From Spirochaetia bacterium (lineage in GTDB: Bacteria; Spirochaetota; Spirochaetia; CAKZLE01), in NCBI GenBank assembly GCA_963677595.1, contig OY782041.1, positions 2,592,001-2,656,000 on the forward strand: a stretch of DNA of 64,000 nucleotides, written 5' to 3'. The stretch's first letter is position 1. Every line of letters begins with the position of its first letter. This document shows positions 1,622 to 26,178 of the stretch, one piece after another. The notes below the pieces were generated by a model. The model saw only the letters and a program-made list of their open reading frames with translations, did not search any database and was not told the DNA's origin. Made by a program: the position numbers and the translations under genes.

Positions 1622-1661
1622 TCATGGCTGAGAAAGTAGTATGACTGTAGTTGAGAAGTCA

Positions 1662-1850
1662 TAGATGCTATCCTATTCTTGACGGAGAATGGGAACCGGT
1701 GATCGTGTAATGATCTATTGTGATGGATGCTGGACTTTCAGACATACCTCAATGAGAAAGATACACTGACCGGTCATCGAAGACTACTTGGAGACTTCCC
1801 GGGGAATTCTCCCCGGGAATGATCTCAATAATAAAAATGAAGGGCATCTA
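1662..1850 (+). ncRNA. Predicted bridge RNA of IS110 element 1
   Basis: Closing stem tagatgc/gcatcta; internal hairpins; segments matching target (1712-1719, 1753-1761) and donor junction (1783-1789, 1830-1835); homologous to 23297-23500 with compensatory changes. Confidence 0.8.
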
Positions 1851-1909
1851 CGCACTTCCTGTCATAAAGCTTCCCAACTATCCGTTAATTTTATTTTGAG
1901 GAGGCTGCC

Positions 1910-3079
1910 ATGATAGACAGACCTTTACGATTGACGGCAACCAGGATCATCGGCTTGGATCTTTCCAAGAAGACTCTGGTTGGGTGTATGCTACTAGCAG
2001 AAGAAGGGTTCATGAAGAATCACTTCTTCAACGAGAAGATGAATGCTCAAGGACGTCAGCGACTCGCTGAACGGTTCAAAGCAGGAGATGCGATCTTCAT
2101 GGAGGGAGGGACCTCTTCCTTCAACCTCGCACGGTATCTGCTGAAGCACACCGAAGCAGACGTGTATGTACTCAACCCCATGAAACTGCATATCATCTTC
2201 GAGTCGATCTGCAAGTCAGATCGGCAAGATGCTGCAAAATTGGCTAAGTATGCACGGGATGCCCACCCGGAGAACTGGGTACTGGTTCCTATCCCGACTG
2301 AACAGGAATCTGCTGAGCGCTCAGTAGTCAAGCTTCACATCGCCTATTCACAGTATCGTACGAAGGTCATCAACAAGCTTCATGCGGTATTCACGGGAAT
2401 GGGGTTCCCTGACCTGAAGAAATCGGATCTGAAGGATCCTCGCAAGCGACGGGACTGGGTGGAGACCCTGCTCACCGAGGAGATAGCTCTATTCAGTGCA
2501 GGGCTCCTGCTCGAAGAGCTTGAATCATTGGAGTCGCAGATGGAACGTATTCATGAGAAGCTCAAGGAGATCATTCTCGCTCACCCACGAGAAGCTCTTT
2601 CCTGGCTCTCGATTCCTGGTATCGGAGACATCACGGCTGTAACGCTCATTGCCTTCCTCGGTAATGGGGACCGATTCTCTTCTGCTAACCAACTGAGGAA
2701 CTATATCGGTCTCATCCCGAAGAAGGATCAATCCGGGACGGTCGATAAGCATCTTGGGGTCTCTCGTCACGGGTGTATGCCGATCAGGAGGCACATCATG
2801 CAGGGAGCTTGGGGGATCAAGAGCTTTAGGAGAGATTGTTCTCTTACTCGGTACTGGCAGCGTCTTGAAAGCCGACGGAAGCTTGGTCAGAAAGCATCAG
2901 TTGCCATTGCTAATAAGATGCTCTCTATCGGATTCGCTCTGCTGAAGAACGGTGATATCTACCGGATGCCTGACGGGGAACAGTATCTGTTGAAGAAACT
3001 GCAATACTATAAACTTGAAGCTCTCATCGGAACCCGATCCTGCAAGATTAATTCCGATAAGAGCTCAATAACCAGCTAA
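1910..3079 (+). CDS. IS110-family transposase/recombinase
   Basis: IIGLDLSKK, FMEGG, KSDRQDA (DEDD); SIPGIG; catalytic Ser loop DQSG; RBS GAGGAGG. Confidence 0.95.
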   Translation: MIDRPLRLTATRIIGLDLSKKTLVGCMLLAEEGFMKNHFFNEKMNAQGRQRLAERFKAGDAIFMEGGTSSFNLARYLLKHTEADVYVLNPMKLHIIFESICKSDRQDAAKLAKYARDAHPENWVLVPIPTEQESAERSVVKLHIAYSQYRTKVINKLHAVFTGMGFPDLKKSDLKDPRKRRDWVETLLTEEIALFSAGLLLEELESLESQMERIHEKLKEIILAHPREALSWLSIPGIGDITAVTLIAFLGNGDRFSSANQLRNYIGLIPKKDQSGTVDKHLGVSRHGCMPIRRHIMQGAWGIKSFRRDCSLTRYWQRLESRRKLGQKASVAIANKMLSIGFALLKNGDIYRMPDGEQYLLKKLQYYKLEALIGTRSCKINSDKSSITS

Positions 3080-3599
3080 AGCCAATCTAACGGTTTTAGC
3101 CTATCACTAACCACCTCCCCACGCAAGTCCTTATTTTTAAGGTCTCGGAGAATTGTGTCTATTTGAATTGCCAAAACTTTCTTGTTTATACCTCTTGACA
3201 TCTACAGACAAATAAAGAGATCTATGTCTATGCAGATTGGGAAGGGATTTCAGGTCCTGAACTCATAGGGACTCTTACCGTCGACAGGACCAGGGGGAAG
3301 GACTTCTACGGTTTCTCATATGCCGATACCTGGCTGAAAAGCGAACATCAGGCGATCCTGTCTCGTTCTGGAAAAGCACAGAATCCCCGAAATGGAACAA
3401 TCCCTGTATGCATCAGCTTTCAAGGTTGAATTGACCTCATAGCTCTGTTTCTGGGATTAGGGATGATATAAAAAAACGGGATGGTGCACATCGTGTCGTT
3501 CAGGTAGTTGTTGATCCCCACGATCTTCTCAACACGCGGGGTAAGATATCCCTGTTCAAGGGCAGTCCCTGCCTCCGTGAAGAGGGGGGGGAGCGGCAG

Positions 3600-3945
3600 G
3601 TGAAGCTCGAGGTCGGGTATGGACTGGAAGGGTACCTGACAGACGGATACGTCAGCGCCGATCCTTGATACTTCTGTCATCCCGGCCTTCAAGCAGAGGA
3701 GTGACTGGGGAGACGGTATGGTAGACGGAACCATTGCTATCGGTGCCACACTGGCTGATAAGAGGGATTTGTCATTCGATATCAGTAACAGTTCTTCCTA
3801 TTCGATCACGAACGAGGAGGGGAGTATCGTTGATATCATCGGAACGATCTGCACCCTCATCTTCGTGTTTTTCATGATATTCGGCAGGAGACGGCGTCTC
3901 CCGAGGATTCTAGCAATTTCAGGAGTATGGATTAATGAAAAATAA
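3600..3945 (+). pseudogene. TPM-domain (YgcG-like) membrane protein remnant, frameshifted
   Basis: VKLEVGYGLEGYLTD signature at 3600, continuing in other frames (ILDTSVIPAFK; DGMVDGTIAI...TM helix-GRRRR); 5' limit uncertain. Confidence 0.65.
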
Positions 3946-3976
3946 TACACTGGAGTATCATTATTCTGGGTTTTCC

Positions 3977-5335
3977 CTATTCGATCAATGGCAGTAGATA
4001 TCCCTTCAGGGCCTCCATCGAGTAGTACTTCGCTCCTATGGAATAGTTCCTTTCTACCGCTTTCATTCGGGAATTCCTGTCCGTGAGATAGGTGATCGCC
4101 TCATCTGCAGCCTTTCCGATGACAGCCTGTTCGACTGAGATCAGGCCTGTGGACTCATCCTTGGTATGCTCATGGCCCAATGAGATGTAATCGAAATCTC
4201 TCTGTTTGATATCAGAGAGGAATATCGGGTATTCATAGACTGCCATCGGTACCTTTGCGAAGAGCCCTTCGAGGAACTGATTTCCCCATCCTTCCCAGTA
4301 GGAAGGGTAGGTGATCAGGTCCGCATGGACGTAGGAGTCCCAGAGACTATAGACCTTCTTTCCTTCAATCTCTGCTCTCTCATGACCGATATGGTCACTG
4401 ATGAAAAGAAGCCTGACACCGTTCTGCTGTGCATGGCTCTCTAAGCGTCTCACATAGGTGCCGGTCGCATCATCACTGGAGTATCCTGTAAGTACCAGGA
4501 CGATCTCACTGGATTCAGTGAATATGTTACCGTTCCATAGAGTCTTTCCCAGTAATGCATCCCGTCTGTCATGGATTCCCCTGATCAGGTCTATTGCGAG
4601 CTCTATGCCCTTTCTTTCAACGATCCTCGTTGCCTGGAGGATGAGGATATCGTCATCTTTGAGTCCGATGGTCTTCCTGAAGTCACGGTTGTAATCATCT
4701 GCGACCCATGGGTCCATCCTGAAATCGAAGACATTGGGAATGATCGTTGCCTCAAGTCCCCGCCTGGTGAGCATCTGCCTCTGCCCATAGCTGTTGATCA
4801 CGACATGCCTGTACGCTTCATTCAAAGGAGGGAGATAGTTCTCCATCAGGTCTTTCGCGGTCTCAGAGGTGATCTTCGCACCGCCGAGCCGCTCCCAGTA
4901 GAAATCATGGTGCTGGGCGAGGACCGGGAGCTGGTACTTCTCCACGATCCGTTGAAGGGCTATCGCTACAGCAGGATTCATGGCTACCGACCAGACATTC
5001 TGCGGGATGACGAAATCGATCCGGTTCTCCTGGATGAACTCATCCAGGACTGTCTGGGCTTTACGTACCTCTGCATAGAGTGTCTCCCGGTATTCCTCCT
5101 CGCTCTCAAAACCGACCGGTTCTGCGAATGAGTAATGGTAGAGCCGCTTCGCGATATCACTGGTGTGGTGGAGGGCAGGGTGGATGAGCTTCGCATCATC
5201 ACCGACCTCCGCACCGAGGAGGATGACCTCATGACCTGCCTCCTCCAAGACTTTCTTCCATTTGTTCATCTCCAGGGAGACGCCGTCTGTTCCCATGATC
5301 TTGTAATGGATCATCCCGATCCGGTAGTGTTTCAT
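3977..5335 (-). CDS. GT4-type glycosyltransferase, mannosylglucosylglycerate synthase-like
   Basis: N-term GTDGVSLEMNKW, HHDFYWER, YPSYWEGWGNQFLE motifs. Confidence 0.85.
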   Translation of the reverse strand: MKHYRIGMIHYKIMGTDGVSLEMNKWKKVLEEAGHEVILLGAEVGDDAKLIHPALHHTSDIAKRLYHYSFAEPVGFESEEEYRETLYAEVRKAQTVLDEFIQENRIDFVIPQNVWSVAMNPAVAIALQRIVEKYQLPVLAQHHDFYWERLGGAKITSETAKDLMENYLPPLNEAYRHVVINSYGQRQMLTRRGLEATIIPNVFDFRMDPWVADDYNRDFRKTIGLKDDDILILQATRIVERKGIELAIDLIRGIHDRRDALLGKTLWNGNIFTESSEIVLVLTGYSSDDATGTYVRRLESHAQQNGVRLLFISDHIGHERAEIEGKKVYSLWDSYVHADLITYPSYWEGWGNQFLEGLFAKVPMAVYEYPIFLSDIKQRDFDYISLGHEHTKDESTGLISVEQAVIGKAADEAITYLTDRNSRMKAVERNYSIGAKYYSMEALKGYLLPLIE

Positions 5336-5336
5336 C

Positions 5337-7064
5337 TTACGCTCTCACACCCTCGATCCACAGGACCTCATAGGGTTCTATTGAATCCCTCAATGCACTT
5401 CTGGTCAGTGGTTTTATCACGGCCCCGGGGAGGATCTCAGCGAAGAGCGCCTGGATATCAGGGGAAGGGCAGTTCTTATCGGCAACATTGGTGATACACA
5501 GTACTGCCTTGACTCTGTCCTTGCAGACCCTGGCATTGATGAAGAGTGAGGATTCCTCACTCCCAATGATCTGCTGGTCAGCATGCGGGGAGAAAGAACA
5601 GTGGTGATTCCTGATTCTCAGCAGTTCACTGAAACTCTTGAGGACCTGATGCTGCTGACTGGTCGGATCATCGAGTATTTCCTCGATCGCATCCAGAGAG
5701 AGTTTCTCCCGGTTGATGCTTCTCGGCATACCGGTCAGTTTCGGTCCTTCGGTCCAGTTCCCGGATCCGATGATGCTGTGGAAGTAGATACCCGGGACTC
5801 CCCGCAGGGAGAGCATGATTGATTGGGAGGCGATGAACCTCCTTACTTCATGATCAGTACTTCCTGCGATCGAGAGGGCATCGAAATAGTTCATGTTCAT
5901 CTCATACGGGCTCTTCGAACCGTCCGAGTTGTTCTTGTAGGAGACATAGCCACCCTGTTCGATGATCCTCTCTGCCATCTGTGTGACATCCTCTTCCGGG
6001 AGGATGCCCCGTGCCGGCATGAGACCGACCCCATCATGGGAGGCGAGGAAATTAAAATAGGTGGTATCTTCTGACGGAAATTCCAGATCCTTAGCCCAGC
6101 CTGACAGATAGGAGGCATCCCCGACCATGAACGCATGGAGGGTGAGCGGCGGGAGCGGGAAGTTATAGACGAGGGCAGCCTCATCATGACCGTTCCCGAA
6201 ATAGGAGATGTTCTCCTTATGGGGGACGTTGGTCTCGGTGATGATGCGTACATCCGTACCGGAAGCGTCGATGAGTCTCCTCATGAGCTTGATGATGCGA
6301 TGAGTCTTTGGATGATGAATACAGCTCGTGCCGATCTCTTTCCAGATATAGGCGATCGCATCGAGCCTGATGAGATCAGCTCCATGCCTGATATAGTCGA
6401 GGAGGATATCGATGACTTCCAGCAGGACCGCAGGATTACTGTAGTTCAGGTCTATCTGATCATCACTGAAGGTCGTCCATACGTGCCGCTTCCCATTCGC
6501 TGTATCCACTTCGGTCAGCAGGGGCAGAGCCCTGGGGCGGAACACCCCGGATAAGTCGCTTGTCTCATCAGCTTCGATGAAGAACTCATCGAAGGGTCTC
6601 CTGCCCTGTTTGTACTCATCGAACCAGGTGCTCATGCTCGAGACATGGTTCGCTACCAGGTCGAACATCAGGCGGTGCTTACTCCCAAGCCTGCTGATAT
6701 CATCCCAGCTGCCGAGTCTCTCATCCACCTGACGGTAGTCGATGACGGAGAAACCGTCATCAGAAGAGTAGGGGTAGAAGGGCAGGATATGAACGGAGTT
6801 CACCACGTCCTTGATATGGGTATGGAGGAACTCATACAGTCCCTGGAGGGGGGGGCTCCCGTCATCCGGCCTGATGATATCCCCATAGGTGATGAGGATG
6901 GAATCCTTCTCACATAACTGATGTGGGGTAATCTGCCGTTGTGCAGCAGCCTGCCGCAGATCTTCAAGCCGCTGCAGGACTGCAGGAAGGGTTTGACCCG
7001 CAATGTTGCTCCCATAGATGAACTCAAGGTCTTCAAAGACAGCTTCTGAAATCGTATTACCCAT
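5337..7064 (-). CDS. GH13_18 sugar phosphorylase, probably glucosylglycerate phosphorylase (YcjM-like)
   Basis: LITYGD, HILPFYPYSSDDGF, RLDAIAY, ETNVP, SHDG; YEMN rather than the YQ(V/I)N of sucrose phosphorylases. Confidence 0.88.
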   Translation of the reverse strand: MGNTISEAVFEDLEFIYGSNIAGQTLPAVLQRLEDLRQAAAQRQITPHQLCEKDSILITYGDIIRPDDGSPPLQGLYEFLHTHIKDVVNSVHILPFYPYSSDDGFSVIDYRQVDERLGSWDDISRLGSKHRLMFDLVANHVSSMSTWFDEYKQGRRPFDEFFIEADETSDLSGVFRPRALPLLTEVDTANGKRHVWTTFSDDQIDLNYSNPAVLLEVIDILLDYIRHGADLIRLDAIAYIWKEIGTSCIHHPKTHRIIKLMRRLIDASGTDVRIITETNVPHKENISYFGNGHDEAALVYNFPLPPLTLHAFMVGDASYLSGWAKDLEFPSEDTTYFNFLASHDGVGLMPARGILPEEDVTQMAERIIEQGGYVSYKNNSDGSKSPYEMNMNYFDALSIAGSTDHEVRRFIASQSIMLSLRGVPGIYFHSIIGSGNWTEGPKLTGMPRSINREKLSLDAIEEILDDPTSQQHQVLKSFSELLRIRNHHCSFSPHADQQIIGSEESSLFINARVCKDRVKAVLCITNVADKNCPSPDIQALFAEILPGAVIKPLTRSALRDSIEPYEVLWIEGVRA

Positions 7065-7081
7065 GGTGATTCCTTATCGTA

Positions 7082-8047
7082 TTATTCTTTGACTCCACCT
7101 GAAGTCATGTTGCCTGCAAGATATTTCTGTACGAGCATGAAGAGGATGACGACCGGGATCGCTGTCAGCATGGAAGCTGCCATGATCCTGTCCCAGATCG
7201 CGTTCTTCGATACGAACAGGGCCTTCAGTGCGATCGGCAGGGTGAAGATATCCTTGAAGGACTTCAGGAATACCGATGCGAAGAGATACTCGTTCCATGC
7301 GATCATGAAGGAGTATACGAATACCGTCGCAAGTGCCCCGAGTGATAACGGGATGATGATCTTGATGATCGTCTGGAACCGGGTATAGCCTTCGACGAAC
7401 GCAGCTTCCTCGATGGAGAACGGGATACTCCTGAAGGTGTTGCCCAGCATGTAGAGCGAAACCGGCAGGGTCTGTACCATATAGATGACCATCAGGGAGA
7501 AGACTGTTCCCCCTTCGGTCCTGGCAAGGCCGAGGGCCACGGAAATCTTGTAGAGCGGTATCAGCAGCAGGATCCCTCCGACCATATAGACGAAGAGGAC
7601 TCCACGCTGGATCAGTTTCTGTCCGCGGTATTTCATACGGCTAATCGAATAGGCCCCGAAGATGGCTATGATCAGGGAGATGAAGGCTGCCGTGGTCGAG
7701 AAGGCCAGGGAGTTCCTGAAATACTTCGGGAAGGGGAAGATGTCTCCAGAATCCTTGTATTTGGCGATGATAGACTCTCGCTGGTCTTTCGTGAGGTCCG
7801 GGGTCTCATCGAGGAGGATCTTCACCGATTCCGGGAGATTCTTCTCATCCTGTCCGATGTTCAGCAGTTCCTTGTAGGCTTCCGTGTTGACCTGTGCGGG
7901 GATGAGGGACGGGTTCCCCCAGTCCCAGGAATGCTTCAATGAAGTCGAGAGCATCTGGAGAAAGGGGAAGAGGCTGAAGGAAACGATGAACAGTACCAGC
8001 AGGGTGAACCCGATATTCTTTACTACATTCTTATGTGTCACTACCAT
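7082..8047 (-). CDS. Carbohydrate ABC permease (YcjP-like)
   Basis: EEAAFVEG loop, IAWNEYLFA. Confidence 0.92.
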   Translation of the reverse strand: MVVTHKNVVKNIGFTLLVLFIVSFSLFPFLQMLSTSLKHSWDWGNPSLIPAQVNTEAYKELLNIGQDEKNLPESVKILLDETPDLTKDQRESIIAKYKDSGDIFPFPKYFRNSLAFSTTAAFISLIIAIFGAYSISRMKYRGQKLIQRGVLFVYMVGGILLLIPLYKISVALGLARTEGGTVFSLMVIYMVQTLPVSLYMLGNTFRSIPFSIEEAAFVEGYTRFQTIIKIIIPLSLGALATVFVYSFMIAWNEYLFASVFLKSFKDIFTLPIALKALFVSKNAIWDRIMAASMLTAIPVVILFMLVQKYLAGNMTSGGVKE

Positions 8048-8913
8048 TTGAGTACCTTCTTTACATAGAACAGTATCAGGCCGATGAGCAGCCCGAACTG
8101 AATGACGACGAGTGCAGAACCCTGTCCCAGGTCCATGTTCCCGGTGAATGCCTTGAAGTAGGTGTAGATCGAGAGGACCTTGACATTGTCAGTCAGCAGG
8201 TAGACATCCTCGAACTTGTTGAAGTTCCAGATGAACCTGAGCAGTACGATAGAACCCATGACGAAATAGAGTTCCGGCAGGGTGATGGAGAAGAACTTCC
8301 TGACAGGGCCGCAGCCGTCGATCTCTGCAGCTTCATAGAGGTTCTTATCAATTGTCTGGAGTCTTGAAAGCAGCATGAGATAGGTGAACGGGAAACTCTT
8401 CCAGATACTGAATATGATCGCTACCCAGAGTGCATAATCAGGGGATCCGATGAGGTTGAACCGCTGAGTATAGATTCCGAACTTGTCGACCATCAGGTGC
8501 ATGAAGATACCGTTAACTGGATCGAAGAAGAACTGCCAGGCGAAGACGACCGAGATGACCGGTGCGACATAGGGCAGCAGGAGAATCGATCTGACGAGCC
8601 ACCTGAGTGGGAACTTCTTGTTCATCGTGAGTGCTACGATGAGACCGAAGATCGTGGTCCCAAAGGTTGAGAAGATCACGTACATGAACGTGGTATAGAC
8701 CGACTTCCAGAAGGTTGGGTCGGTGATGACTGAAGAGTAGTTCTCTCCGCCGATATAGGTGCTCTCGCCGGTCATCGTCACATCGAAGAAGCTCAGATAT
8801 ATGTTGTACCCGACCGGGTAGAGGATTAAGAGCAGTATGATGGAGAGCGCAGGCAGGACCAGCTTCACTCCAAGACGTGCATCTTTCTGTTCCAATGTTA
8901 ATTGCTTTTGCAT
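8041..8913 (-). CDS. Carbohydrate ABC permease (YcjO-like)
   Basis: LYEAAEIDG motif, TM helices. Confidence 0.92.
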   Translation of the reverse strand: MQKQLTLEQKDARLGVKLVLPALSIILLLILYPVGYNIYLSFFDVTMTGESTYIGGENYSSVITDPTFWKSVYTTFMYVIFSTFGTTIFGLIVALTMNKKFPLRWLVRSILLLPYVAPVISVVFAWQFFFDPVNGIFMHLMVDKFGIYTQRFNLIGSPDYALWVAIIFSIWKSFPFTYLMLLSRLQTIDKNLYEAAEIDGCGPVRKFFSITLPELYFVMGSIVLLRFIWNFNKFEDVYLLTDNVKVLSIYTYFKAFTGNMDLGQGSALVVIQFGLLIGLILFYVKKVLKW

Positions 8914-9036
8914 AACATCTCCTGATCACAGATATTGTGAAGTACATGGTGTTTGTGATAATGTCTAGAAACTTGAAGGTCGAGCCTGCGGTCTGCAACA
9001 ATCGACAGGCTCTTCCAGCTTGAAATGCGGTTTATG

Positions 9037-9063
9037 GGAGGGCTTCGTACAGAAGCCCTCTCC
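9037..9063. terminator. Stem-loop between SBP and permease genes (attenuator or mRNA stabiliser)
   Basis: ggagggcttc-gtaca-gaagccctct inverted repeat. Confidence 0.55.
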
Positions 9064-9083
9064 TAAACCCTTTTTTGTCTTGA

Positions 9084-10472
9084 CTATTCGAGGACAGCCT
9101 TCATCTCTTTCTCAGCCCAATCCATGGCAGCATCAATGTCCATGCCTTCCTGGGTGATCTTGTAGATCATCTGAGGAATGATCTGCTGTGTGGTGATGAC
9201 GGTCGCGTCGTTCATCTTCTTACCGTCGACGATGCTGAATGATGCGATATCATTCATACCTTCAGCGATCTCAGCCATCTTCTCAGGACCGTAGTGCTTG
9301 AAGATTCCATTAGGATCGTTCTGGAAACGTGCATTCTCTGCGATTCCCTTGATGACAGGGTTCATTCCGCCAGGTGCCATGTGCAGGAAGGTGATGTATG
9401 CGTTCTGGGTATAGAGGTATCTCAGGAAGTCTGAAGCAGCCTGTGTCTTTGCAGCATCCGGCTGGTTGATCAGCCCCATGGTTACGACGACACCATAACC
9501 TGCAGTCTCGGTGTTGGTGATCAGAGGAGACATCTTGGTATGGTCTACGAGTTCTGGATCGAAATCGTCACCTGCGAGGTCCGCGAAGTTCTCTGAGGTG
9601 AGGGAACCTGCAGCGACTTCTGCCAGTGAGAGGTCATCCATGATATAGGTTGAGTAGAAGAACATTGCCATCTTGCCTTGGAGATAGTAGTCTCGGGCTC
9701 TCCAGGTCTGTGGTCCTGGAGGATTGTATTTAGCGAGTTCGGTATAGATCTCGACTGCTTCTTTCATCTCAGGTGAGTTGAAGATCAGTTCTCCATCACT
9801 GTTGAACAGCTGTGCGCCGTTTGACATAGCGAACGGGGTGAAGCACTGTTCAGCGAAGTTCTCAGGTTTGGTTCCTACGAGAATACCATACTGGTTGTCT
9901 TCCGGTTTGTAGAAGTACTTTGCAGCCTTGAGGATGTTATCCCAGGTGTTCGGAGCTTCCAGACCTGCTTCCTCGAACCAGTCTGACCGGTACCAGATTC
10001 CCTGTACCCAACCATGGTATGGCAACGCATAGGGTTCACCGTTCTCGCTTTCTACGAGCTTCATAGCTCCTTCGTAGAAAGAGTCTACACCGATCTTGTC
10101 GATCAGTGCCTGGTTTGCATCTACGTTCATCAGTCCGTCAACACCGAATGCCACAGCGTTCTCTGCTCCGATCTCGATGAGAGCGGGGAGAGTCCCTGCT
10201 GATGATGCAGTCTGGAGCTGGGTAGCCATATCATTCTCATCTACCGGGATGAGTTTGATCTTGACATCTGGATTGAGTGCTTCGTAGGTGTCGATCAGTA
10301 CCTGGATGGTAGCCTGACGGTCTGACTGAGTCTCTGTTGACCAGAATTCGAATTCCACAGGACCTGATGGGGTCGCTTCGACGGCTTCTCCTTCACCTTG
10401 AGCGAAGATAGCAGCAGGTGCTAAGAGCAGGGCGATGAGAGCTACTGTCATGATTCTTGACAGCTTTTTCAT
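9084..10472 (-). CDS. Carbohydrate ABC substrate-binding protein (YcjN-like)
   Basis: Signal peptide; SBP_bac_1-like; PPGPQTWRARDYYLQGKMAMFFYSTY. Confidence 0.92.
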   Translation of the reverse strand: MKKLSRIMTVALIALLLAPAAIFAQGEGEAVEATPSGPVEFEFWSTETQSDRQATIQVLIDTYEALNPDVKIKLIPVDENDMATQLQTASSAGTLPALIEIGAENAVAFGVDGLMNVDANQALIDKIGVDSFYEGAMKLVESENGEPYALPYHGWVQGIWYRSDWFEEAGLEAPNTWDNILKAAKYFYKPEDNQYGILVGTKPENFAEQCFTPFAMSNGAQLFNSDGELIFNSPEMKEAVEIYTELAKYNPPGPQTWRARDYYLQGKMAMFFYSTYIMDDLSLAEVAAGSLTSENFADLAGDDFDPELVDHTKMSPLITNTETAGYGVVVTMGLINQPDAAKTQAASDFLRYLYTQNAYITFLHMAPGGMNPVIKGIAENARFQNDPNGIFKHYGPEKMAEIAEGMNDIASFSIVDGKKMNDATVITTQQIIPQMIYKITQEGMDIDAAMDWAEKEMKAVLE

Positions 10473-10611
10473 GGTAAACCTCCTTACGGTTCTCTATCGG
10501 GATAGTTCCAAAGATGCGTGATGCGGATGATGTCTGAAAAGTCCTGTTCTCTCTCCCGATCCATAATTCATACAGGGCTTAGGATTTCCCTGCATATCTT
10601 CTATTTCAAGA

Positions 10612-11604: not shown

Positions 11605-11681
11605 GATCTGACCTTATCATCGCTGAAATGAGAAGTCAATGAAAATTGCACAAAAAGTATAAAAACTTTCATTGAAATATA

Positions 11682-17739: not shown

Positions 17740-17778
17740 ATGTTCTCCTATCTATTACGGGCCATATCAGCCCGTGAT

Positions 17779-18369: not shown

Positions 18370-18531
18370 CTCCGCCTGGTTGTTTAAAAATACTAAATAT
18401 GTATAAGTATTTATAAAACCAGATGGCTGGTTTGTCAAGGTGAAAGAAAGCGATTCATGGAATTGCATGATATATGGTACTATGGAGACTAAAGCAGTGG
18501 TACACTGAAGATTAACGACAGGGGGACAACG

Positions 18532-18882
18532 ATGTTCATATCGCACAGGGACGAGATAGAGAAGCAGGTCCAGGCAGGGGATGCCCTCAAGGGGGTGACC
18601 AAGCAGATCCTCATCGGGCCGCATGAGGGATGGGATGACTACGTCATGAGGATGTTCACCCTCGAGTCAGGCGGCTATGCACCGATGCATGCACATGACT
18701 GGCCCCACATCGTGTATGCGGTCGAGGGGGAGGGGGTCCTCCATTTCGAAGGTGAGGAGCATCCGCTGCCCAGCGGGGCTACCGCCTATGTCGACAGCAA
18801 TGCCACCCACCAGATCAGGAATGCGGGGGACGGGAAGTTCGTCTTCATCTGCATCGTGCCGAGGAGGGGGGACCCCGTCTGA
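18532..18882 (+). CDS. Cupin domain protein
   Basis: HAHDWPH...GEG...HQIRN. Confidence 0.9.
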   Translation: MFISHRDEIEKQVQAGDALKGVTKQILIGPHEGWDDYVMRMFTLESGGYAPMHAHDWPHIVYAVEGEGVLHFEGEEHPLPSGATAYVDSNATHQIRNAGDGKFVFICIVPRRGDPV

Positions 18883-18892
18883 GCATAAAGAA

Positions 18893-18931
18893 GCCGTCGC
18901 TGCGGGAAAACAATGACCTTGCAGCGACGGC
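18893..18931. terminator. Hairpin between convergent cupin and trxA genes
   Basis: gccgtcgctgc...gcagcgacggc. Confidence 0.65.
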
Positions 18932-18968
18932 CGATACTACATGCGATTCGGAGTGTCCTTATTCAGTA

Positions 18969-19319
18969 TTACGGCAGCAGGATATCGTTGATAGCCTGTT
19001 CGAAGCTCTGTTTCGGCAGGGCTCCCATGGCAGCCTGGGGCTGTCCTTCCTTCGGGACGAAGAGTATTGTGGGGATACTCCTGATCTCGAACATCCCGGC
19101 CAGCTGCTGCTGTTCCTCGGTATTCACCTTGAAGATGTCGATCTTGCCCTCATAGTCCTTTGCCAGTTCTTCGAGGACCGGTGCCACCATCTTACAGGGA
19201 CCGCACCAGTCTGCGTAGAAGTCGATGATGCAGGGTTTGTCACCTGCGAACTTCCATTCTTTGCTCTCTTCCCAATTGAAGACCTTTTCCTTGAATGTAT
19301 CCAGAGTTAAATGTTCCAT
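18969..19319 (-). CDS. trxA: Thioredoxin
   Basis: DFYADWCGPCK, SIPT. Confidence 0.97.
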   Translation of the reverse strand: MEHLTLDTFKEKVFNWEESKEWKFAGDKPCIIDFYADWCGPCKMVAPVLEELAKDYEGKIDIFKVNTEEQQQLAGMFEIRSIPTILFVPKEGQPQAAMGALPKQSFEQAINDILLP

Positions 19320-19491
19320 ACGTTTTCTCCCGTTCTTATGCTTTGTATTAATTCATTATTAAAATACTAATAAATAGCAAAAAGTCAAATCAATTTTGAC
19401 ATATACCAGAAATCGGGTTTTTCCTCCTCATATTTATATGATACCATACCTACACTCAACATGAGCACTGTTTTTTTCTGAAGGAGATTCG

Positions 19492-20259
19492 GTGATGATA
19501 CGAAGGACTGTCCTGGTCGTCTTGTTGGCTTGTTTGGTGATCTTCCCGCTCAGCGGGGCTCCTGCCGAGAGTGGGAACGCTGCGGCGGCCGGTGTGAATG
19601 GCTACCTCGTCATCCCCAGTGCGGTTCCTGCCTGGGCAGAGAACGATGGGACGGTGACGATCGGTTACTCGGCGAATCTCTCCGGTAACGGGTTCAGCCA
19701 TATACCCTACCTCCAGGTAGGCGTGAACGGGCAGCTCGAGTTCGCCCTGAGTGCCGATCTCGGTACTGGCGCTGCGATCCTCTTCAACGGGAAGCTGCGG
19801 GTGGATAGGGCTACCGGCAGGTCCCTTGCCTTCGGGGTCAACGGGCAGCTCCTGCAGATCACTCCGTCGTTGGACTGGGCAGCCCAGCTCTACGGGGCCT
19901 ACACCTTCTCCGGCAACATCCTGAACCGGTCTGCTTCGGCGACCCTCATGCTGGGGTATACCCTGCGGCCGAGTATCAGTTCCAACATCGATTATGGGAT
20001 GGGGCTGGAGTTCCCGTTCCTCGAGGATGTCTTCAACGGGAAGGTAGACTTCGTCCTCGACTTCGGGAACATCTCCTACAGTGCAGCCCCGAGCATCACG
20101 GATGCCGGGAACCGGGGCATGGTGAACCTCGGCCTCAGGCTGCGCCCGATAACGCTCACGGACGGGATCTATTTCAGCGCCGACCTGCGTACCCTCGATA
20201 TCATGGATGCGGCAGACCGGGGACTGAGCCTCGGGGTCGGTTTCTCCTTCGAACCCTGA
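19492..20259 (+). CDS. Secreted hypothetical protein, possible outer-membrane beta-barrel
   Basis: Signal peptide; alternating amphipathic strands; ends LGVGFSFEP. Confidence 0.7.
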   Translation: MMIRRTVLVVLLACLVIFPLSGAPAESGNAAAAGVNGYLVIPSAVPAWAENDGTVTIGYSANLSGNGFSHIPYLQVGVNGQLEFALSADLGTGAAILFNGKLRVDRATGRSLAFGVNGQLLQITPSLDWAAQLYGAYTFSGNILNRSASATLMLGYTLRPSISSNIDYGMGLEFPFLEDVFNGKVDFVLDFGNISYSAAPSITDAGNRGMVNLGLRLRPITLTDGIYFSADLRTLDIMDAADRGLSLGVGFSFEP

Positions 20260-20359
20260 TCACCTGAATCTATATTCATGTAATACAATGCACGCATATT
20301 GACAGACACCCCCATCTGCAGGTACTGTGCTGGTGTCAACACAGCAGAGAGGTGAGAAG

Positions 20360-22135
20360 ATGGGGAAACTGAATTCATGGCGAATACTGACGAATCATGC
20401 ACGGGTGCTCCTCTACCTGCTGCATAACCCCACTGCCCGGGTTCGGACTATTGCAGGCAAGCTCGGGATCACGGAACGTGCCGTCCACAAGCTCATCTCG
20501 GAACTCGAGGAGGAGCACTACCTGTCCAGGAGCCGGGACGGGAGAAGGAACATCTATGAGCTCGACCTCTCTGCGCCAGTGACGATCAATGAGGATGACA
20601 AGCTTACCGTCCGTGAGCTGCTTGAACGGCTCTCGCTGGAGCGGATCGAGCGGCCTGCAGTCTTCCTCGACCGGGACGGCACCCTCATCGAGGACCGGGG
20701 GTACATCTCCTCACCCGACGATATCGTGCTCTTCGATGATACCATCGATGCCCTGCACAGTCTTGCCGGTACCTACGAGCTCTTCGTGGTGACCAACCAG
20801 TCCGGGATCGCCAAAGGGTTGATCAGCCGGGAGGATGCGGACCGGGTGAATGCCGCCCTGGATGCTATCCTGCGGAAAGCGGGGATCACGATCAGGAAGT
20901 GGTATGTCTGCCCGCACAACAGGGAGGACGGCTGTGACTGCATGAAGCCAAGACCTCGGTTCCTCCTGGAGGCCTCCAATGAGTTCAGGGTCGACCTTGC
21001 GAGGTCGTTCACCATCGGGGACCACCCCCATGATGTCCTGACCGGGAGCGAATACGGCTGTACCGGGCTCTACCTGCTCACCGGTCACGGTGAGAAACAT
21101 GCTGCAGAACTCCCGCATGACAAACTGCTCTTCCACAGCCTCTCCGATGCCGTCTCCTGGATCGGGACGCATGGGGATGCGAGAGGATCCCTGGAAGAAG
21201 AGATCGCCCGGGGCGTGAAGGCTATCAGGGAGGGAGGGCTCACCGCCTTCCCGACTGAGACCGTCTACGGCCTCGGGGCTGATGCCATGAACGAGGATGC
21301 GGTCAGGAAGATCTTCATCGCGAAGCAGCGTCCCTTCGAGGACCCGCTGATCTCCCATGTCTCGAGCCGCGATATGGTGCTTCCTATGGTCGGGGAACTT
21401 CCCCCGAAGGCCGTGAAGCTCATGGATGCCTTCTGGCCGGGACCGTTGACCCTCGTCTTCAGGAAGTCCGGACTCGTACCCGATGCCGTCACGGCAGGGA
21501 ACCCGACGGTCGCGATCAGGATGCCGAGCCATCCCGTGGCTCTCGAGCTGATCAGGAGGGCCGGGACACCGATCGCGGCTCCGAGCGCGAACTCCTTCGG
21601 GAAGACATCCCCCACTACCGCACAGCACGTGATCGATCAGCTCGAAGGTCGGTTCGATGCGATCATCGACGGCGGAGCCTGCAGGGTAGGGGTGGAGTCG
21701 ACCGTCCTCTCGATCGTGGATGAGGAACTTCCGGTCCTCCTGAGGCCGGGCGGGGTGACCATCGAGGAGATCGAGGCCGTGATCGGACCGATCACCATGG
21801 CTCTGCCGAAGCAGGAGCTCGTCTTCGACAGCCCCGGGATGTTCCCCTCCCACTATGCCCCGAAGACTCCGATGATCATGGTCGATGACCCGTCGCTCTA
21901 TGCCCATGAGTCCCATATAGCGGTGATGCTCTTCAGGCCGTCAGAGGTCGAGTATGCTGGTGAGGTCTTCACCCTGAGCAGTTCAGGTAATGCAGCCGCA
22001 GCTGCTGCGAGGCTCTATGAGACCATGCGGAGGATCGACCGGCTCGGCCTGCGGCTGATCGTCGCCGAGAAGCTCCCCGAGACCGGTATGGGGGTCGCGG
22101 TGAATGACAGGATGAGCAGGGCAGCCGCCGATTAG
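20360..22135 (+). CDS. Fusion of wHTH, GmhB-like HAD phosphatase and Sua5 (TsaC2) threonylcarbamoyl-AMP synthase
   Basis: HTH (TNHARVL...GITERAVHKLISEL); FLDRDG, CPH..C.C.KP; FPTETVYGLGA, APSAN, PG..HYAP. Confidence 0.88.
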   Translation: MGKLNSWRILTNHARVLLYLLHNPTARVRTIAGKLGITERAVHKLISELEEEHYLSRSRDGRRNIYELDLSAPVTINEDDKLTVRELLERLSLERIERPAVFLDRDGTLIEDRGYISSPDDIVLFDDTIDALHSLAGTYELFVVTNQSGIAKGLISREDADRVNAALDAILRKAGITIRKWYVCPHNREDGCDCMKPRPRFLLEASNEFRVDLARSFTIGDHPHDVLTGSEYGCTGLYLLTGHGEKHAAELPHDKLLFHSLSDAVSWIGTHGDARGSLEEEIARGVKAIREGGLTAFPTETVYGLGADAMNEDAVRKIFIAKQRPFEDPLISHVSSRDMVLPMVGELPPKAVKLMDAFWPGPLTLVFRKSGLVPDAVTAGNPTVAIRMPSHPVALELIRRAGTPIAAPSANSFGKTSPTTAQHVIDQLEGRFDAIIDGGACRVGVESTVLSIVDEELPVLLRPGGVTIEEIEAVIGPITMALPKQELVFDSPGMFPSHYAPKTPMIMVDDPSLYAHESHIAVMLFRPSEVEYAGEVFTLSSSGNAAAAAARLYETMRRIDRLGLRLIVAEKLPETGMGVAVNDRMSRAAAD

Positions 22136-22154
22136 GCGATACCAGCCGGCATAG

Positions 22155-23153
22155 TCACTGCCGGGTCAGGGTATCGTCCTTGATGATGATCGATGCCTGT
22201 GAGAGGACCTCCTCAGGGATCGTGATCCCGAGCTTCTCCGCAGTATCAAGGTTCACCAGCAGCTGGATGTCCTCCGGTTCGGTCATGAAGCCGACCGGTA
22301 TGGAGGCAGGGTCTGCTCCCTCCAGGAGTTCTGCAGCCATACGTGCCGTGGCTCTTCCGAGTTTGTAGTAGTCGAATCCCCAGGCGAGCATGATATCCAA
22401 ACCCTCTGCCGAGGTAGTATCGGCACTCATGATCGGGATGCCTGCGTTCAGGGCAACATCAGCGAGGGCGGGAAGGGCCGAGACGACGGTGTTGTCATTG
22501 GAGACGTAGAACCCGTCCACCCTGCCCGCGATCGCCTGGGCTGCCTGCTTCACCTCCGAGCTGTTGGTAACCGAGGAGGGGACGTACTCGATCCCGAGCT
22601 TGTCACAGACCTCTTCGGCCATCCCTGCCAGCAGGACCGCGTTCGCCTCCCCGCTGGTATAGACGACACCGAGACGCCTGATCCCCGCAACCTCTTTCAG
22701 GAGGCTGATCTGTGCCGCTACCGGGGTCAGGTCCGATACTCCGCACACATTCCCGATACCATGGTCATAGGTCTCCACCAGCCCCGCCGCGATCGGCTCG
22801 GTCACTGCCGAGAAGAGTACGGGGCTGTCAGTGATTGTGTTGGCCAGCGCCTGGGACGTCGGGGTGGCGATCCCGATAGCGAGGTCCACCCGGTCCGCCT
22901 TGAACTTCCCGGCGATGGAGTTCGCTGTTGCGATATCCCCGTTGGCCTGCTGCAGGTCGAAGGTGATGTCATCGTAGCCTGCGTCCCGCAGCCCGTCGAT
23001 GATTCCCTGCTCGATCGCGTCCAGCGCGGGGTGGGTAATGATCTTCGAGATCCCCACGGTGACCTTCCCGTCGTCCTTCCTGCAGCCGGTCAGCCCGGTG
23101 AGGCCTAGAAGTATGATGATGATCGCCGCAGCGATCGCAGATGACTTCTTCAT
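22155..23153 (-). CDS. ABC substrate-binding lipoprotein (DUF534/TrpX-like)
   Basis: Lipobox LTGC; HPALDA, IATP, SNDNTV. Confidence 0.9.
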   Translation of the reverse strand: MKKSSAIAAAIIIILLGLTGLTGCRKDDGKVTVGISKIITHPALDAIEQGIIDGLRDAGYDDITFDLQQANGDIATANSIAGKFKADRVDLAIGIATPTSQALANTITDSPVLFSAVTEPIAAGLVETYDHGIGNVCGVSDLTPVAAQISLLKEVAGIRRLGVVYTSGEANAVLLAGMAEEVCDKLGIEYVPSSVTNSSEVKQAAQAIAGRVDGFYVSNDNTVVSALPALADVALNAGIPIMSADTTSAEGLDIMLAWGFDYYKLGRATARMAAELLEGADPASIPVGFMTEPEDIQLLVNLDTAEKLGITIPEEVLSQASIIIKDDTLTRQ

Positions 23154-23296
23154 GTCTTGTCCTTCCTATAATGTTTCTATCGATAGAAACAATTTGCAGG
23201 ATTACTATATATGTTTCTACGAATAGAATCAATAGGGTCTGAAGAATTATAATGTCCACATAAGAGATTGATGCTTTCAGTCTCTTATTCTGGAAG

Positions 23297-23500
23297 GTTC
23301 GATGTTATTCTGGACTTGACGGAGTCCGGAAGCCGGTGGTCATGCGACTACGTTTGTGAAACACGTCTGTTGACGGTGATTTCTTTGAAGAAAATACACA
23401 GACGCCGGCCATCGAAGTATAAGGTGGGACTGATGGAGGATGGTGAGCATCCGGTCATATCCTCCATCTGAGCCCGATAATAAAAATGAAAACAACGAAC
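23297..23500 (+). ncRNA. Predicted bridge RNA of IS110 element 2
   Basis: Closing stem gttcgatgtt/aacaacgaac; same scaffold motifs as 1662-1850; target match tgaagaaaa 23386-23394; donor matches 23418-23422 and 23479-23484. Confidence 0.8.
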
Positions 23501-23554
23501 TGCTAAAAAGCCTTCCGGATATCTTCCGCCAATCTATTTTTAGGAGGTGGCAAG

Positions 23555-24706
23555 ATGAATGGAAACTTGCCAGAAGGTTCTCGGATCATAGGGCTCGACC
23601 TATCCAAGAAATCGTTCACAGGATGTATCCTCTCCGGTACGGGTTACGTGAAGAAGCAGTACTTTTCGGGGAAGATGACGCAGGAAGACCAGGGGTGGAA
23701 ACTCATACGTGACTACATCCATGACGGAGACCTGGTACTCATGGAGGCAGGCACCTCATCGTTCACGTTAGCCCGGTACCTGCAGCGACGTTCGAAAGCG
23801 AGTAAGGTGATCGTCTTGAATCCCGGTACGCTGCGCATCATCTGGATGAGCCATCAGAAGAATGACAAAGCAGATTCGGCAAAGATTGCCTGTGTCGCCA
23901 GGGACATGCCTGAGGAGGCCTGGCCGGTAGTTCCTATACCTACCGATCAGGAGCAGGCAGAACGATCATGTATCACCCTGTATGTGTTCTTTAAACGGGA
24001 AGAGACGCAGTTGATCAACCGTCTGTATGCGCTGTATAACTCACTGGGCTATCCGGAGATCTCCCCAGCGATCCTCAAGGAGCAGCCGGAGGGACGGCAT
24101 GCGTTAGCCCGGAAGTTGTTGTCTGACTGCCCGACAGCCTTGGATGGGGCAGTCCTGCTGAATGAGCAGCTTGAGTTGACGCAGCATCATATTGAGGTGA
24201 TGATCGATAAACTGCGGAGCATCTGTCTGGCCCATCCGAAGCAGGCGCTCTCCTGGTTCTCGATACCGGGTATCGGCCTCATTAATGCAGCTACGTTACT
24301 AGCCTACATCGGAGATGGTTCACGATTCACCAAATCGTGCCAGCTGCTCAACTATGCAGGCCTCATCCCCAAGCAGGATCAAAGTGGTACAGTCGATAAG
24401 CATCTTGGGATCACCCATCGGGGCAATGCCTACATCCGCAGGAACATCGTCCAGGGAGCCTGGAGAGTCTCGAATATGAAGCCGGTTTGCCAGATTACCA
24501 AGTTCGCATATCATAAGAAAATGGCAGGAAAGAAGAAGCAGATAGTCGCTATAGCAGTCGCGAACAAGATGCTTCGAACGGGGTTGGCTATGCTGCATTC
24601 AGGAGAACTCTATTACCCCACGATCGAGGAGGGATACGCCAAGCTCGAAGCAAAGCTTCGATCGTACAAAGTACAGGCCCTTATGAATTCCATAGCAGAA
24701 AGGTAA
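23555..24706 (+). CDS. IS110-family transposase/recombinase
   Basis: IIGLDLSKK, LMEAG, KNDKADS, SIPGIG, DQSG; clear paralogue of 1910-3079. Confidence 0.95.
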   Translation: MNGNLPEGSRIIGLDLSKKSFTGCILSGTGYVKKQYFSGKMTQEDQGWKLIRDYIHDGDLVLMEAGTSSFTLARYLQRRSKASKVIVLNPGTLRIIWMSHQKNDKADSAKIACVARDMPEEAWPVVPIPTDQEQAERSCITLYVFFKREETQLINRLYALYNSLGYPEISPAILKEQPEGRHALARKLLSDCPTALDGAVLLNEQLELTQHHIEVMIDKLRSICLAHPKQALSWFSIPGIGLINAATLLAYIGDGSRFTKSCQLLNYAGLIPKQDQSGTVDKHLGITHRGNAYIRRNIVQGAWRVSNMKPVCQITKFAYHKKMAGKKKQIVAIAVANKMLRTGLAMLHSGELYYPTIEEGYAKLEAKLRSYKVQALMNSIAER

Positions 24707-24713
24707 TTTCATA

Positions 24714-25947
24714 GGCTCTTTTCGTAAGTTTTAGTTATGGGCTATCGGCTGCAAGATCTTAGGAAATTCAAGATTTCTGACCTGCTTTGTCGTAGCCGTT
24801 TCCTTCCCCGGTACCATCAGAGATTTAAGAATGTCCACTTTTTCTGATAACCGTTTCGGTTTGTTCACTAACTTCCAAGCTTCCCACATAATATACAACT
24901 CAGCATTCTTCGTGGCAAAACTCGATCGGCTATGAGCTTTCTCTGCAATAATCGAGTGTAACGCATTCACCATCTGCAGATTGAACTGGCCATATCGCGA
25001 TTCCGTCTTTGAATCAAGCGCAACATGGGATAGTCCAGAATCCTGGGCAAACTTTATTCCGCCCTTGCTCTTATCGGTTACCAGAATCGCCTGAGTATTC
25101 AGCCGAGTGTCAAACGCATACCCCAAGCCCTCACTGCTGACCGTACCTCTCCCGATGGGTTTGCCAATCACATTGCGATCTTCATCTATCGCTGTAGCGA
25201 TGCAGACCTTATCCCTGCTCAACCCGCGTTTTTTGTCCTGGGAGCCACGCTGGTGAGGATGATCTCGGAATCCATACTTCTTATAGTCGGGGATCATGTC
25301 CGTATAGTCCTGTTCGATCCCTAAGTTTGCTACACTCTTCTTATTGCCCTTAAAGCTTGCTGGAAGATAGAATTCGTCTTCTTGGATGATCCCGGTTAGG
25401 ATTTTCCCCTCGACCGAATTCCCCACATGATTGAACAGCTTCATCCGCCATGCATGTGCTGTAGCTAGGGATATGTGGCACTTTTCAGACAAGATGGTTA
25501 ACGTATCATTACACAGCATGCCCTCGATGAAGGTATCCCAGGCTTGGTTTGAGGTTGCGCTGCCTTGCGATACCCGCCCTGTAGATACCCCAAAATATGA
25601 TCGGCACTCATTGCATCGATATCTTGGTTTCCCATATGCAGAACCGTTCTTCACCACATGAGTCGACCCACAGGTCGGACAACATATTGGTGTCGAACCT
25701 GCCTCCGGCTGCTTCCTGCCAGCTTCCAATGGAGAAACAGATTCAGTATTGTCAGGGGAAAGGCCATTTTCCTCTATCAAGGTATTCACGATTGTGATGA
25801 TGGCTTTTTTCTCTTCAACATCCTTCAGAGCATCCAGCATCTGCTGATAGATTTCCAATGCAATTTGTTCGTTACTTCCCATAGCTATAGTATAGCAGAT
25901 TTAAGGCCTGCTGTATACAAAAATCACTTTATCTTACGAAAAGAGCC
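24714..25947 (-). mobile_element. IS1595-family element (ISPna2-like)
   Basis: 15-bp perfect TIR ggctcttttcgtaag; 8-bp TSD atttcata (24706-24713 and 25948-25955). Confidence 0.93.
24731..25882 (-). CDS. IS1595-family transposase
   Basis: Zn ribbon CPTC..C..C, HTH, QEDEFY / LVTDK / VNALHS (DDN-type triad). Confidence 0.92.
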   Translation of the reverse strand: MGSNEQIALEIYQQMLDALKDVEEKKAIITIVNTLIEENGLSPDNTESVSPLEAGRKQPEAGSTPICCPTCGSTHVVKNGSAYGKPRYRCNECRSYFGVSTGRVSQGSATSNQAWDTFIEGMLCNDTLTILSEKCHISLATAHAWRMKLFNHVGNSVEGKILTGIIQEDEFYLPASFKGNKKSVANLGIEQDYTDMIPDYKKYGFRDHPHQRGSQDKKRGLSRDKVCIATAIDEDRNVIGKPIGRGTVSSEGLGYAFDTRLNTQAILVTDKSKGGIKFAQDSGLSHVALDSKTESRYGQFNLQMVNALHSIIAEKAHSRSSFATKNAELYIMWEAWKLVNKPKRLSEKVDILKSLMVPGKETATTKQVRNLEFPKILQPIAHN

Positions 25948-26178
25948 ATTTCATAAGAGCCCCATAATTCAAAGTACCTCAGCGTTTCGCCTGTGTCTAT
26001 TCATAGGCTAGTATCATTATATGCAGATGTCAAGATTTAGATATGTTTAAAGTTTACTCTTGACTTATGTGGACAAATAAAAACATGAGAAAATATCTCG
26101 TCAGGGAATGGCAGGCGGTCCCAACCTACTGGACAACCGTGTCGTGGCGATTATGCTTACCTCAAGGGAGGATACCGC

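Follow-up and report, generated by a model that had tools for sequence, protein, structure and literature searches.

RNA-guided recombination by insertion sequences (IS) of the IS110 family was published in 2024, when a bridge RNA mechanism was reported for IS621 and ISCro4 (Durrant, PMC11208160; Hiraizumi, PMC11208158; recombinase structures PDB 8wt6 and 9t56) and seekRNA elements were reported within the IS1111 family, namely ISEc11, ISPa11, ISKpn4 and ISPst6 (Siddiquee 2024, PMC11187229). The latter study places the complement of the top strand first in the seekRNAs of the IS1111 family and an IS621-like order in ISEc21, notes that the non-coding region is upstream in a few IS1111 relatives (ISMtsp17), and already describes natural reprogramming between relatives (PMC11187229); bridge-RNA loci have also been mined at scale (2026 preprint 10.64898/2026.10.21.760802). 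Here we describe two elements in a stretch of 64,000 nucleotides from the genome of a Spirochaetia bacterium (assembly GCA_963677595.1, contig OY782041.1, positions 2,592,001 to 2,656,000 of the forward strand; hereafter the window, to which coordinates refer unless a contig is named), element 1 at 1636-3216 and element 2 at 23247-26081. We hold with high confidence that both are IS110-family IS whose left ends encode a conserved two-loop RNA, likely the bridge (seek) RNA of a DEDD/serine recombinase. That is, the mechanism is a known one, represented here by a new member family with four sub-lineages, and with a wiring that is noteworthy but probably not unique.

Elements 1 and 2 resemble IS621 in their DEDD (RuvC-like) plus Tnp recombinase, in having the RNA gene within a long left end (longer than the right end) upstream of the transposase gene, in two internal-loop modules with two guide strands each that address the bottom strand to the left and the top strand to the right of a 2-nt core, and in an outward -35 in the right end combined with a -10 in the left end; the target guides of IS621 are programmable, and the likeness in this respect is here one of sequence covariation. 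They differ from IS621 in that the right-half guides come first, whereas its left guides do so there (residues 50-58 and 123-130), in an AA rather than CT core, in subterminal repeats of 6-13 bp rather than 2-3 bp, in a left guide of just 5 + 2 letters, and in transposases of 383-389 amino acids (aa) that are only weakly similar (E ~1e-13) to the 328-341 aa proteins of IS621/ISCro4. With IS1111 elements they share the position of the top-strand complement 5' of the bottom-strand match and long subterminal inverted repeats (7-17 bp there), but the RNA gene lies upstream rather than downstream of the transposase gene and the IS1111 transposases are shorter (330-350 aa). In the parts of the literature consulted, we found no description of the guide order where an upstream RNA gene and long subterminal repeats combine, although the supplements of large mining studies may cover this clade (preprint 10.64898/2026.10.21.760802). 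CazIS110-1 of Caloranaerobacter azorensis (preprint 10.1101/2025.10.25.684509), set beside our elements by description only, is likewise a multi-copy IS110 element with a bridge RNA.

Among named IS, ISLin1 and haloarchaeal IS come closest in pairwise comparison, at <33% identity. ISLin1 (Leptospira interrogans, ISfinder, locus L101) has the best E-value among plasmid records (1e-35, 27% identity) and an upstream non-coding region with a GACGGAG hairpin and GCCGGTGG, which our covariance model R1 (below) matches weakly (28.8 bits, E 2e-6), but protein and RNA are both very distant. A source-data table of Siddiquee lists ISLin1 beside the archaeal ISHvo9, ISHvo10 and ISH18 (PMC11187229), and these three are also among the best protein matches here. 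In the ISLin1 locus itself, about 100 nt comprising TTGACA and post-transposase sequence are repeated directly upstream of the left end (330-437 and 1740-1838 of L101), which may represent an abutted right-end/left-end arrangement, and tandem copies of a ~44-nt unit lie downstream.

Two elements with a covarying left-end scaffold

The length of element 1, 1581 bp, was derived from its end motifs, and comparison of its five genome copies sets the left end at GTAGTATG, preceded by the flank ...GAGAAA, and the right end at ...ACAAATAAA followed by variable DNA, giving a left end of 274 nt (1636-1909) and a right end of 137 nt (3080-3216). Element 2, delimited by its sequence and end motifs, spans 2835 bp including a nested IS1595-family element and ~1592 bp without it, and ~20 kb of ordinary chromosomal genes separate it from element 1. 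Both elements lie on the plus strand, as do all features below unless noted otherwise. Their transposases (1910-3079, 389 aa, and 23555-24706, 383 aa) are 45% identical to each other and both carry the Pfam domains DEDD_Tnp_IS110 (RuvC-like) and Transposase_20 (Tnp), with the former domain of element 2 scoring 28.5, just below the cut-off of 29. NCBIfam model NF033542 (‘IS110 family RNA-guided transposase’) is passed by both (198 bits for element 1 and 181.6 bits for element 2, cut-off 140), and the only solved structures that match are the transposases of ISCro4 (E 5e-14) and IS621 (1.3e-13). The ISEc11 transposase aligns over residues 233-351 only (the C-terminal third, 29% identity).

A word-index search for related proteins yielded 128 matches at E <= 1e-30, the named ones among them being IS110 family transposases of Sphaerochaeta, Pleomorphochaeta or Spirochaetales metagenome-assembled genomes. 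Close relatives were found in two of six genomes of the family and, at E <= 1e-60, in two of 401 sampled genomes of the phylum (own genome counted in both cases). For the comparisons that follow, we collected homologous loci from species-representative genomes (4) and from metagenome contigs (80). An initial annotation, made from the sequence of the window alone, had proposed that the elements belong to a possibly uncharacterised clade; this suggestion did not hold, as members are already named IS110 family transposase at NCBI and the ISLin1 upstream region is weakly matched by R1.

The two left ends share ataataaaaatgaa, ccggtg and catcgaag (1775 and 23410), together with a cttgacggag hairpin with compensatory arms, and every motif of the initial annotation lies at the position it gave. 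Folding against shuffled sequences gave z = -6.0 for the left end of element 1 and -6.4 for that of element 2. In element 1, a -10-like hexamer TAGTAT (1637-1642) at the start of the left end is followed by the 5' hairpin with the conserved GACGGAG loop (1672-1693; helices 1-2, 99-100% paired with compensatory changes), the target-binding module with its outer stem (helix 3), two guide strands and inner hairpin (1696-1779, from folding and alignment), the conserved linker CATCGAAG joining the two modules (1775-1782), and the donor-module hairpin (1790-1828; helix 4, with compensatory changes in 9/9 pairs). The corresponding 5' hairpin of element 2 is at 23308-23331, and its left end starts with the -10 hexamer TATAAT (23248-23253).

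An alignment of 40 non-identical left ends gives the same consensus, that is, a 5' GACGGAG-loop hairpin followed by two modules, each of which is closed by a stem, the outer stem in the case of the first. Sliding the partners lowers the share of alignment cells in standard pairs from 96.3% to 28.8-47.1%, and the number of pairs changed on both sides from 15 of 26 to 3-7; none of 500 structure shuffles reached the observed value on four of five measures, and 6/500 did so on the fifth. R1, the covariance model built from this alignment, detected 18 of the 19 loci outside it (35-164 bits), the missed locus (L034) having only 128 nt upstream, and on the own genome it found six elements and one relic. 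The RNA gene is upstream of the transposase gene in all R1-matched loci, and the linker CATCGAAG is exact in 59 of the 79 loci with the upstream region present, ~135 nt before the start codon and down to ~40% protein identity.

Probable guide strands, target flanks and element ends

The first loop carries two strands that appear to read the target on either side of an AA core. In element 1, the 3' strand (1753-1761, TGAGAAAGA) is made up of TGAGA (left target), AA (core) and GA and agrees at 9/9 positions with the empty site described below, and the 5' strand (1711-1719, TGATCTATT, with GATCTATT at 1712) is the right-target guide, the reverse complement of which matches the top strand right of the core at 7/9 positions (6, 8 and 8 of 9 in sister copies with the same guide). 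In element 2, the 3' strand (23386-23394, TGAAGAAAA) reads TGAAG, AA and AA and matches the left flank plus core at 7/7 positions, and the 5' strand (23347-23355, ACTACGTTT) matches its own right flank at 5/9. Both left guides in the window, TGAGA+AA (1753-1759) and TGAAG+AA (23386-23392), are thus perfect to their own flanks. The target halves of element 1, GGCTGAGAAA on the left (1627-1635, with the left AA core copy at 1634-1635) and GAGATCTAT on the right (3217-3225), were read from the flanks of the five copies and the empty-site contig, and the right one also from the right-guide match; those of element 2, TGAAG plus the AA core (23240-23246) and AACATGAGA (26082-26090), were read from the sequence with flank and right-guide comparison, respectively.

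For the left side, we compared the letters before the conserved TACAC-type stem with the flank before each lineage's left-end start, in 53 loci that reduce to 48 unique guide-flank events. The 3' strand repeats the top strand left of the insertion at a mean of 4.79 of 8 positions, versus 3.39 (standard deviation 0.14) in shuffles (0/5000 as high), and shuffling within the four sub-lineages gave the same outcome (4.35 versus 3.07 of 5, 0/5000). The cognate match at positions -1 to -5 from the AA core is 94, 98, 100, 90 and 54% of the 48 events, versus 79, 63, 64, 40 and 35% for non-cognate pairs, and positions beyond -5 are at background; therefore, the left guide amounts to five letters plus AA. 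Non-A guide letters, for which the A-rich targets are no help, match their own flank in 58/86 cases versus 755/3936 (19%) for the flanks of loci with other guides. As for the core, AA closes the left flank in 46 of 48 events and occupies the core positions of the guide in 48/48, and it is present in all right ends.

For the right side, the reverse complement of the nine letters before the GTGA-type anchor was compared with AA plus the right flank, allowing shifts of 0-2, in 47 loci that reduce to 43 unique events. The mean match is 6.33/9 versus 4.67 (standard deviation 0.16) in shuffles (0/5000), the longest run averages 5.02 versus 3.04 (0/5000), runs of at least 6 occur in 20/43 events versus 2.4% of 1784 non-cognate pairs, and shuffling within groups gave 6.32 versus 5.10 (0/5000). 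GC-rich right guides match GC-rich flanks, for instance in loci L037, L044, L084 and L086. The opposite-sense controls were low on both sides (2.17/8 left, 3.26/9 right). The within-group mismatch rate is 0.51 in the 5' guide strand and 0.30 in the 3' guide strand, versus 0.07-0.11 in the adjoining scaffold; hairpin loops aside, no part of the RNA varies more within sub-lineages than the guide columns do. Building a covariance model and looking for guide-target covariation in homologues had been the check proposed with the initial annotation, and its outcome, 18 of 19 loci found by R1 and flank matches that no shuffle reached on either side, supports the bridge/seek-RNA reading given there, together with the NF033542 scores, the covarying scaffold and a donor loop that follows the ends.

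A fixed register of the right guide was ruled out, given that the best shift is 0, 1 and 2 in 16, 16 and 11 events. The A-run at the core, present in most targets, may allow the register to slip, although in L086, L044 and L082 the shift of 2 cannot come from an A-run. Relative to the AA core, a shift of 2 is seen in L037, L044, L048, L082, L083 and L086 and a shift of 0 in L084, L065 and L033. We also observed that the right flank just past the A-run is a GC-rich inverted repeat in many relatives (L015, L039, L041, L048, L049 and others); viewed from the opposite strand, such a target thus resembles an intrinsic terminator, with a T-run and a hairpin.

In the 9-mers at 1753-1761 and 23386-23394, five letters plus AA track the left flank; the last two letters (GA and AA) match both window targets but do not track the right flanks across the family, and the post-core letter of this strand mostly equals the first left-end letter instead (50/53 loci, with few independent states). 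The latter pattern, with the same caveat of few states, resembles the handshake guides of IS621.

The second loop appears to read the ends of the element itself. In element 1, its 5' strand is ACTAC (+TT) at 1783-1789, reverse-complementary to the GTAGT (+AA core) with which the left end starts, and in element 2 the linker CATCGAAG is followed by TATAA at 23418 (together 23410-23422), the reverse complement of the left-end start TTATA. The 3' strand, AATAAAAA, at 1830-1837 in element 1 and 23479-23486 in element 2 (AATAAA at 1830 and 23479), has the same sense as the right-end terminus AAATAAA. More generally, three of the four sub-lineages (g1, g2 and g4) carry, directly behind CATCGAAG, five letters that are reverse-complementary to the first five of the element, the pairs being ACUAC/GTAGT, UAUAA/TTATA and UCUAU/ATAGA; within g2, CAUAA accompanies TTATG (U/C covaries with A/G), and in the fourth sub-lineage GUAU, overlapping the last G of the linker, matches ATAC. 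The donor 3' strand AAUAAA(AA) repeats the right-end terminus, and in locus L040 one changed letter (ATATAAA) is present in RNA and right end alike. Within sub-lineages the donor-loop strands are conserved (mismatch 0.08-0.09), and in most of the group of element 1 the donor loop has UU opposite the AA core.

The right end of element 1 (3195-3216) comprises an outward -35 TTGACA (3195-3200), the repeat CTACAG (3202-3207, partner CTGTAG at 1645-1650) and the terminus AAATAAA with the core copy at 3215-3216; that of element 2 (26060-26081) comprises the -35 TTGACT, the subterminal repeat and the terminus AAATAAA. The subterminal inverted repeats are 6-13 bp exact and 6-8 nt from the ends (9 in element 1), with 6 exact positions in element 1 (7/8 by eye) and 12 in element 2 (TGTCCACATAAG, 23253-23264, partner 26064-26075). 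In 58 loci, TTGACA or TTGACT lies at a distance of exactly 22 nt from the right terminus, and positions 2-7 of the left end conform to TANNNT in 53/54 loci (TAGTAT in element 1, TATAAT in element 2), and abutting the ends on a single AA gives a 17-bp spacer between the right-end -35 and the left-end -10-like hexamer. A spacer of 17 bp is optimal for sigma-70. In the integrated state, the letters at the corresponding -35 positions are ATCCTG and AGAATC.

The mechanism that these features suggest would start with the element leaving as a circle, which would bring TTGACA/T of the right end and TANNNT of the left end 17 bp apart, at a junction that would read ...AAATAAA directly followed by GTAGTATG (element 1) or TTATAATG (element 2). 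The promoter formed at this junction would then drive both the transposase and the RNA, the latter would keep target and circle junction in contact during strand exchange at AA, and new first-loop strands would retarget the element.

Probable mobility and retargeting within the genome

The genome holds five copies of element 1, with proteins 97-100% identical and every frame open. In a public sequencing run (run X1), probably the sample behind the genome, one contig joins 1632 to 3214 with exactly 1581 bases missing, the four letters AAAG fitting either side, and the joined (empty) allele reads GGCTGAGAAAGAGATC, which is the target that the initial annotation had reconstructed and that could here be read directly. 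The contig with the empty joint has a depth of 21.4, compared with 25 and 28 for those spanning the occupied junctions and 36-42 in the flanks; therefore, part of the sampled population lacks the window copy of element 1. The core AA is shared by both junctions, and relative to the empty site there is a 1581-bp insertion with no duplication beyond the ambiguous overlap AAAG. An AA core followed by AGTAGT, or the AAAG overlap as core, was ruled out: in the other four copies, AAATAAA is followed by T, A or T, which places the G outside the core, and the donor-loop ACUACUU and the 17-bp promoter spacing set the left-end start at GTAGT. Since excision of CazIS110-1 yields a circle without the target site being rejoined (preprint 10.1101/2025.10.25.684509), we read the empty site as more likely a never-occupied allele than a precise excision.

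Among the loose contig ends of run X1, one left and one right element 1 flank are unlike all five assembled copies, and one contig departs from element 1 behind 1696; this suggests more insertion sites or rearrangements in the sampled population. Empty sites were also sought in relatives, but the same-genus and same-family flanks of both elements are 66-69% identical, too distant for base-level reconstruction. In the genome, the guide-predicted 13-letter target has no perfect copy and six unoccupied sites within one mismatch (versus three for the reversed control), three of which equal the target of the window copy over the 13 letters searched. Taken together, element 1 is probably active now, as judged from its copies and contigs.

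The sharpest case of guide change is a copy of element 1 outside the window, L005 (G000:C1:143899-148065), with a transposase 97% identical. Compared with the window copy, its left end has 14 differences, nine of which fall within the 18 guide letters (P = 4e-9), and both target-loop strands are rewritten (GATCTA to ACGTTT and TGAG to GAGA). In its new form, GAGAA+AA, the left guide agrees with the flank of this copy, ...CGAGAAAA, and the same left-guide variant is present in a run from another study. The new 5' strand has TACGTTT in common with that of element 2. The initial annotation had seen a natural reprogramming pair in elements 1 and 2 themselves; their guides do differ with their targets, but the two are only 45% identical and belong to different sub-lineages, so that L005 is the better example. 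The genome also contains a relic of an element-1-like left end (G000:C1:253806-253984, about 490-665 of L102; R1 88.8 bits) that bears a third guide set, with the linker decayed to CATTGTAG; it ends inside the donor hairpin and no transposase gene follows.

Around the insertions, the window copy of element 1 sits between a helix-turn-helix gene (1268-1621) and a downstream open reading frame (ORF) starting at 3224. The window copy (3217-3226), copies L001 and L005, and element 2 (26082-26087) all have an ATG 3-9 nt beyond the insertion point on the right, and the left target half, being rich in purines, is reminiscent of a weak ribosome-binding site. Element 2 is present in one genome copy. 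Directly behind the stop codon of its transposase begins the nested IS1595-family element (24714-25948, minus strand; ORF 24731-25882), which was recognised by NF033547 (82.6 bits, cut-off 75) and by 15-bp terminal inverted repeats, with an 8-bp target duplication, ATTTCATA, at 24706-24713 and 25949-25956. It has one copy and is found nowhere else in the genome, and we therefore regard it as cargo of element 2. Elements 1 and 2 are co-oriented and have the same final 10 letters (GACAAATAAA); as pure speculation, the donor loop of element 1 might recognise its own left end (1636) together with the right end of element 2 (26081), which would define a 24.4-kb composite segment.

Alternative explanations and wider meaning

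Several observations weigh against the bridge-RNA reading. The left-end motifs of the four groups were set by eye before counting, and the loci are related, so the shuffles overstate their independence. On the target side, the right guide of element 2 fits poorly (5/9 with a run of 4, a weakness that the initial annotation had already remarked upon), as does that of L005 (6/9, run of 3), and the register of right pairing varies among events as given above. On the donor side, g2 and g4 have GG or CG opposite the AA core, letters that do not pair with it, and the donor ends vary in ~4 lineages only, which leaves few independent covariation events. Finally, no Rfam family reached its gathering score in the whole window (at E <= 1, both left ends gave only an irrelevant Plastid-rpl20 match), no RNA run was found among the public sequencing runs looked up, and no right-end/left-end circle joint was found among the contigs of run X1, although contigs cannot show its absence.

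The alternative that survives best, which we nevertheless consider unlikely, is that the elements are inactive relics and that the guide-flank matches record past insertions, with no movement today. The single copy of element 2 with its nested IS1595 and poor right guide, the truncated relic elsewhere in the genome, and the searches for a circle joint and an RNA run that returned none are all compatible with this scenario. It is harder to reconcile with five copies of element 1 that are 97-100% identical and all open, with a window copy missing from part of the sampled population, with contigs that show element 1 flanks beyond the five assembled copies, and with the transposase frame, RNA scaffold and both ends of element 2 being intact.

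Even less probable, in our view, is that the first loop alone guides (a target-only seekRNA) and the protein recognises the ends via the subterminal repeats, with the likeness of the donor loop to the ends as a by-product. Such a scheme would fit the length of the exact repeats, which are long as in IS1111 elements, the report that a short seekRNA was sufficient for ISEc11 transposition (PMC11187229), the small number of lineages (~4) among which donor ends differ, and the unpaired core-facing letters of g2 and g4. It does not account for the five letters after CATCGAAG following the left-end start in g1, g2 and g4, including the U/C with A/G change inside g2, for the right-end change of L040 that is mirrored in its RNA, or for a donor-module stem with compensatory changes in all nine pairs; moreover, circle formation and integration of CazIS110-1 required the full-length RNA (preprint 10.1101/2025.10.25.684509). 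That the left end is instead a cis-acting leader (translation control or promoter region) and the flank likeness the protein's preference for A-rich sites is highly improbable, because, even with a -10-like hexamer in the left end and A-rich targets that raise the background (63-79% non-cognate match at the three core-adjacent positions), non-A guide letters follow their own flank, GC-rich right guides match GC-rich flanks, and the changed guide of L005 matches a changed flank, which is beyond a protein preference.

Returning to the bridge-RNA reading, its parts may be joined into a broader model, which we offer tentatively and rate as possible rather than probable. Under this model, the elements represent a deep-branching IS110 lineage of anaerobic Spirochaetota-type genomes and digester/rumen-type metagenomes, distantly related to ISLin1 and haloarchaeal IS, with a third bridge-RNA wiring in which the RNA gene is upstream as in IS621 and the guide order and subterminal repeats are as in IS1111. 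Given an IS1111-type guide order combined with an upstream RNA gene, the recombination complex would therefore act in the opposite polarity to IS621, and the lineage would mark the step where the RNA gene moved between element ends. It would further be transposing now in the sampled population, retarget by changes of a few guide letters within one genome, and tolerate a register that slides across A-runs around the AA core.

The known mechanism is unchanged by the finding. What our results add is a natural bridge-RNA example outside the IS621 clade, with ~50 insertion events, four sub-lineages and one target seen empty. For tool builders, they describe a compact orthologue family (~1.58 kb) in which the core is AA, the left guide is short and the right guide measures <=9 nt. 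L005, in turn, suggests how a guide change within one genome can retarget an element that is otherwise 97% identical. Finally, these loci show that where the RNA gene lies can be separated from the order in which the guides come, and this separability bears on the divergence of IS110 and IS1111.

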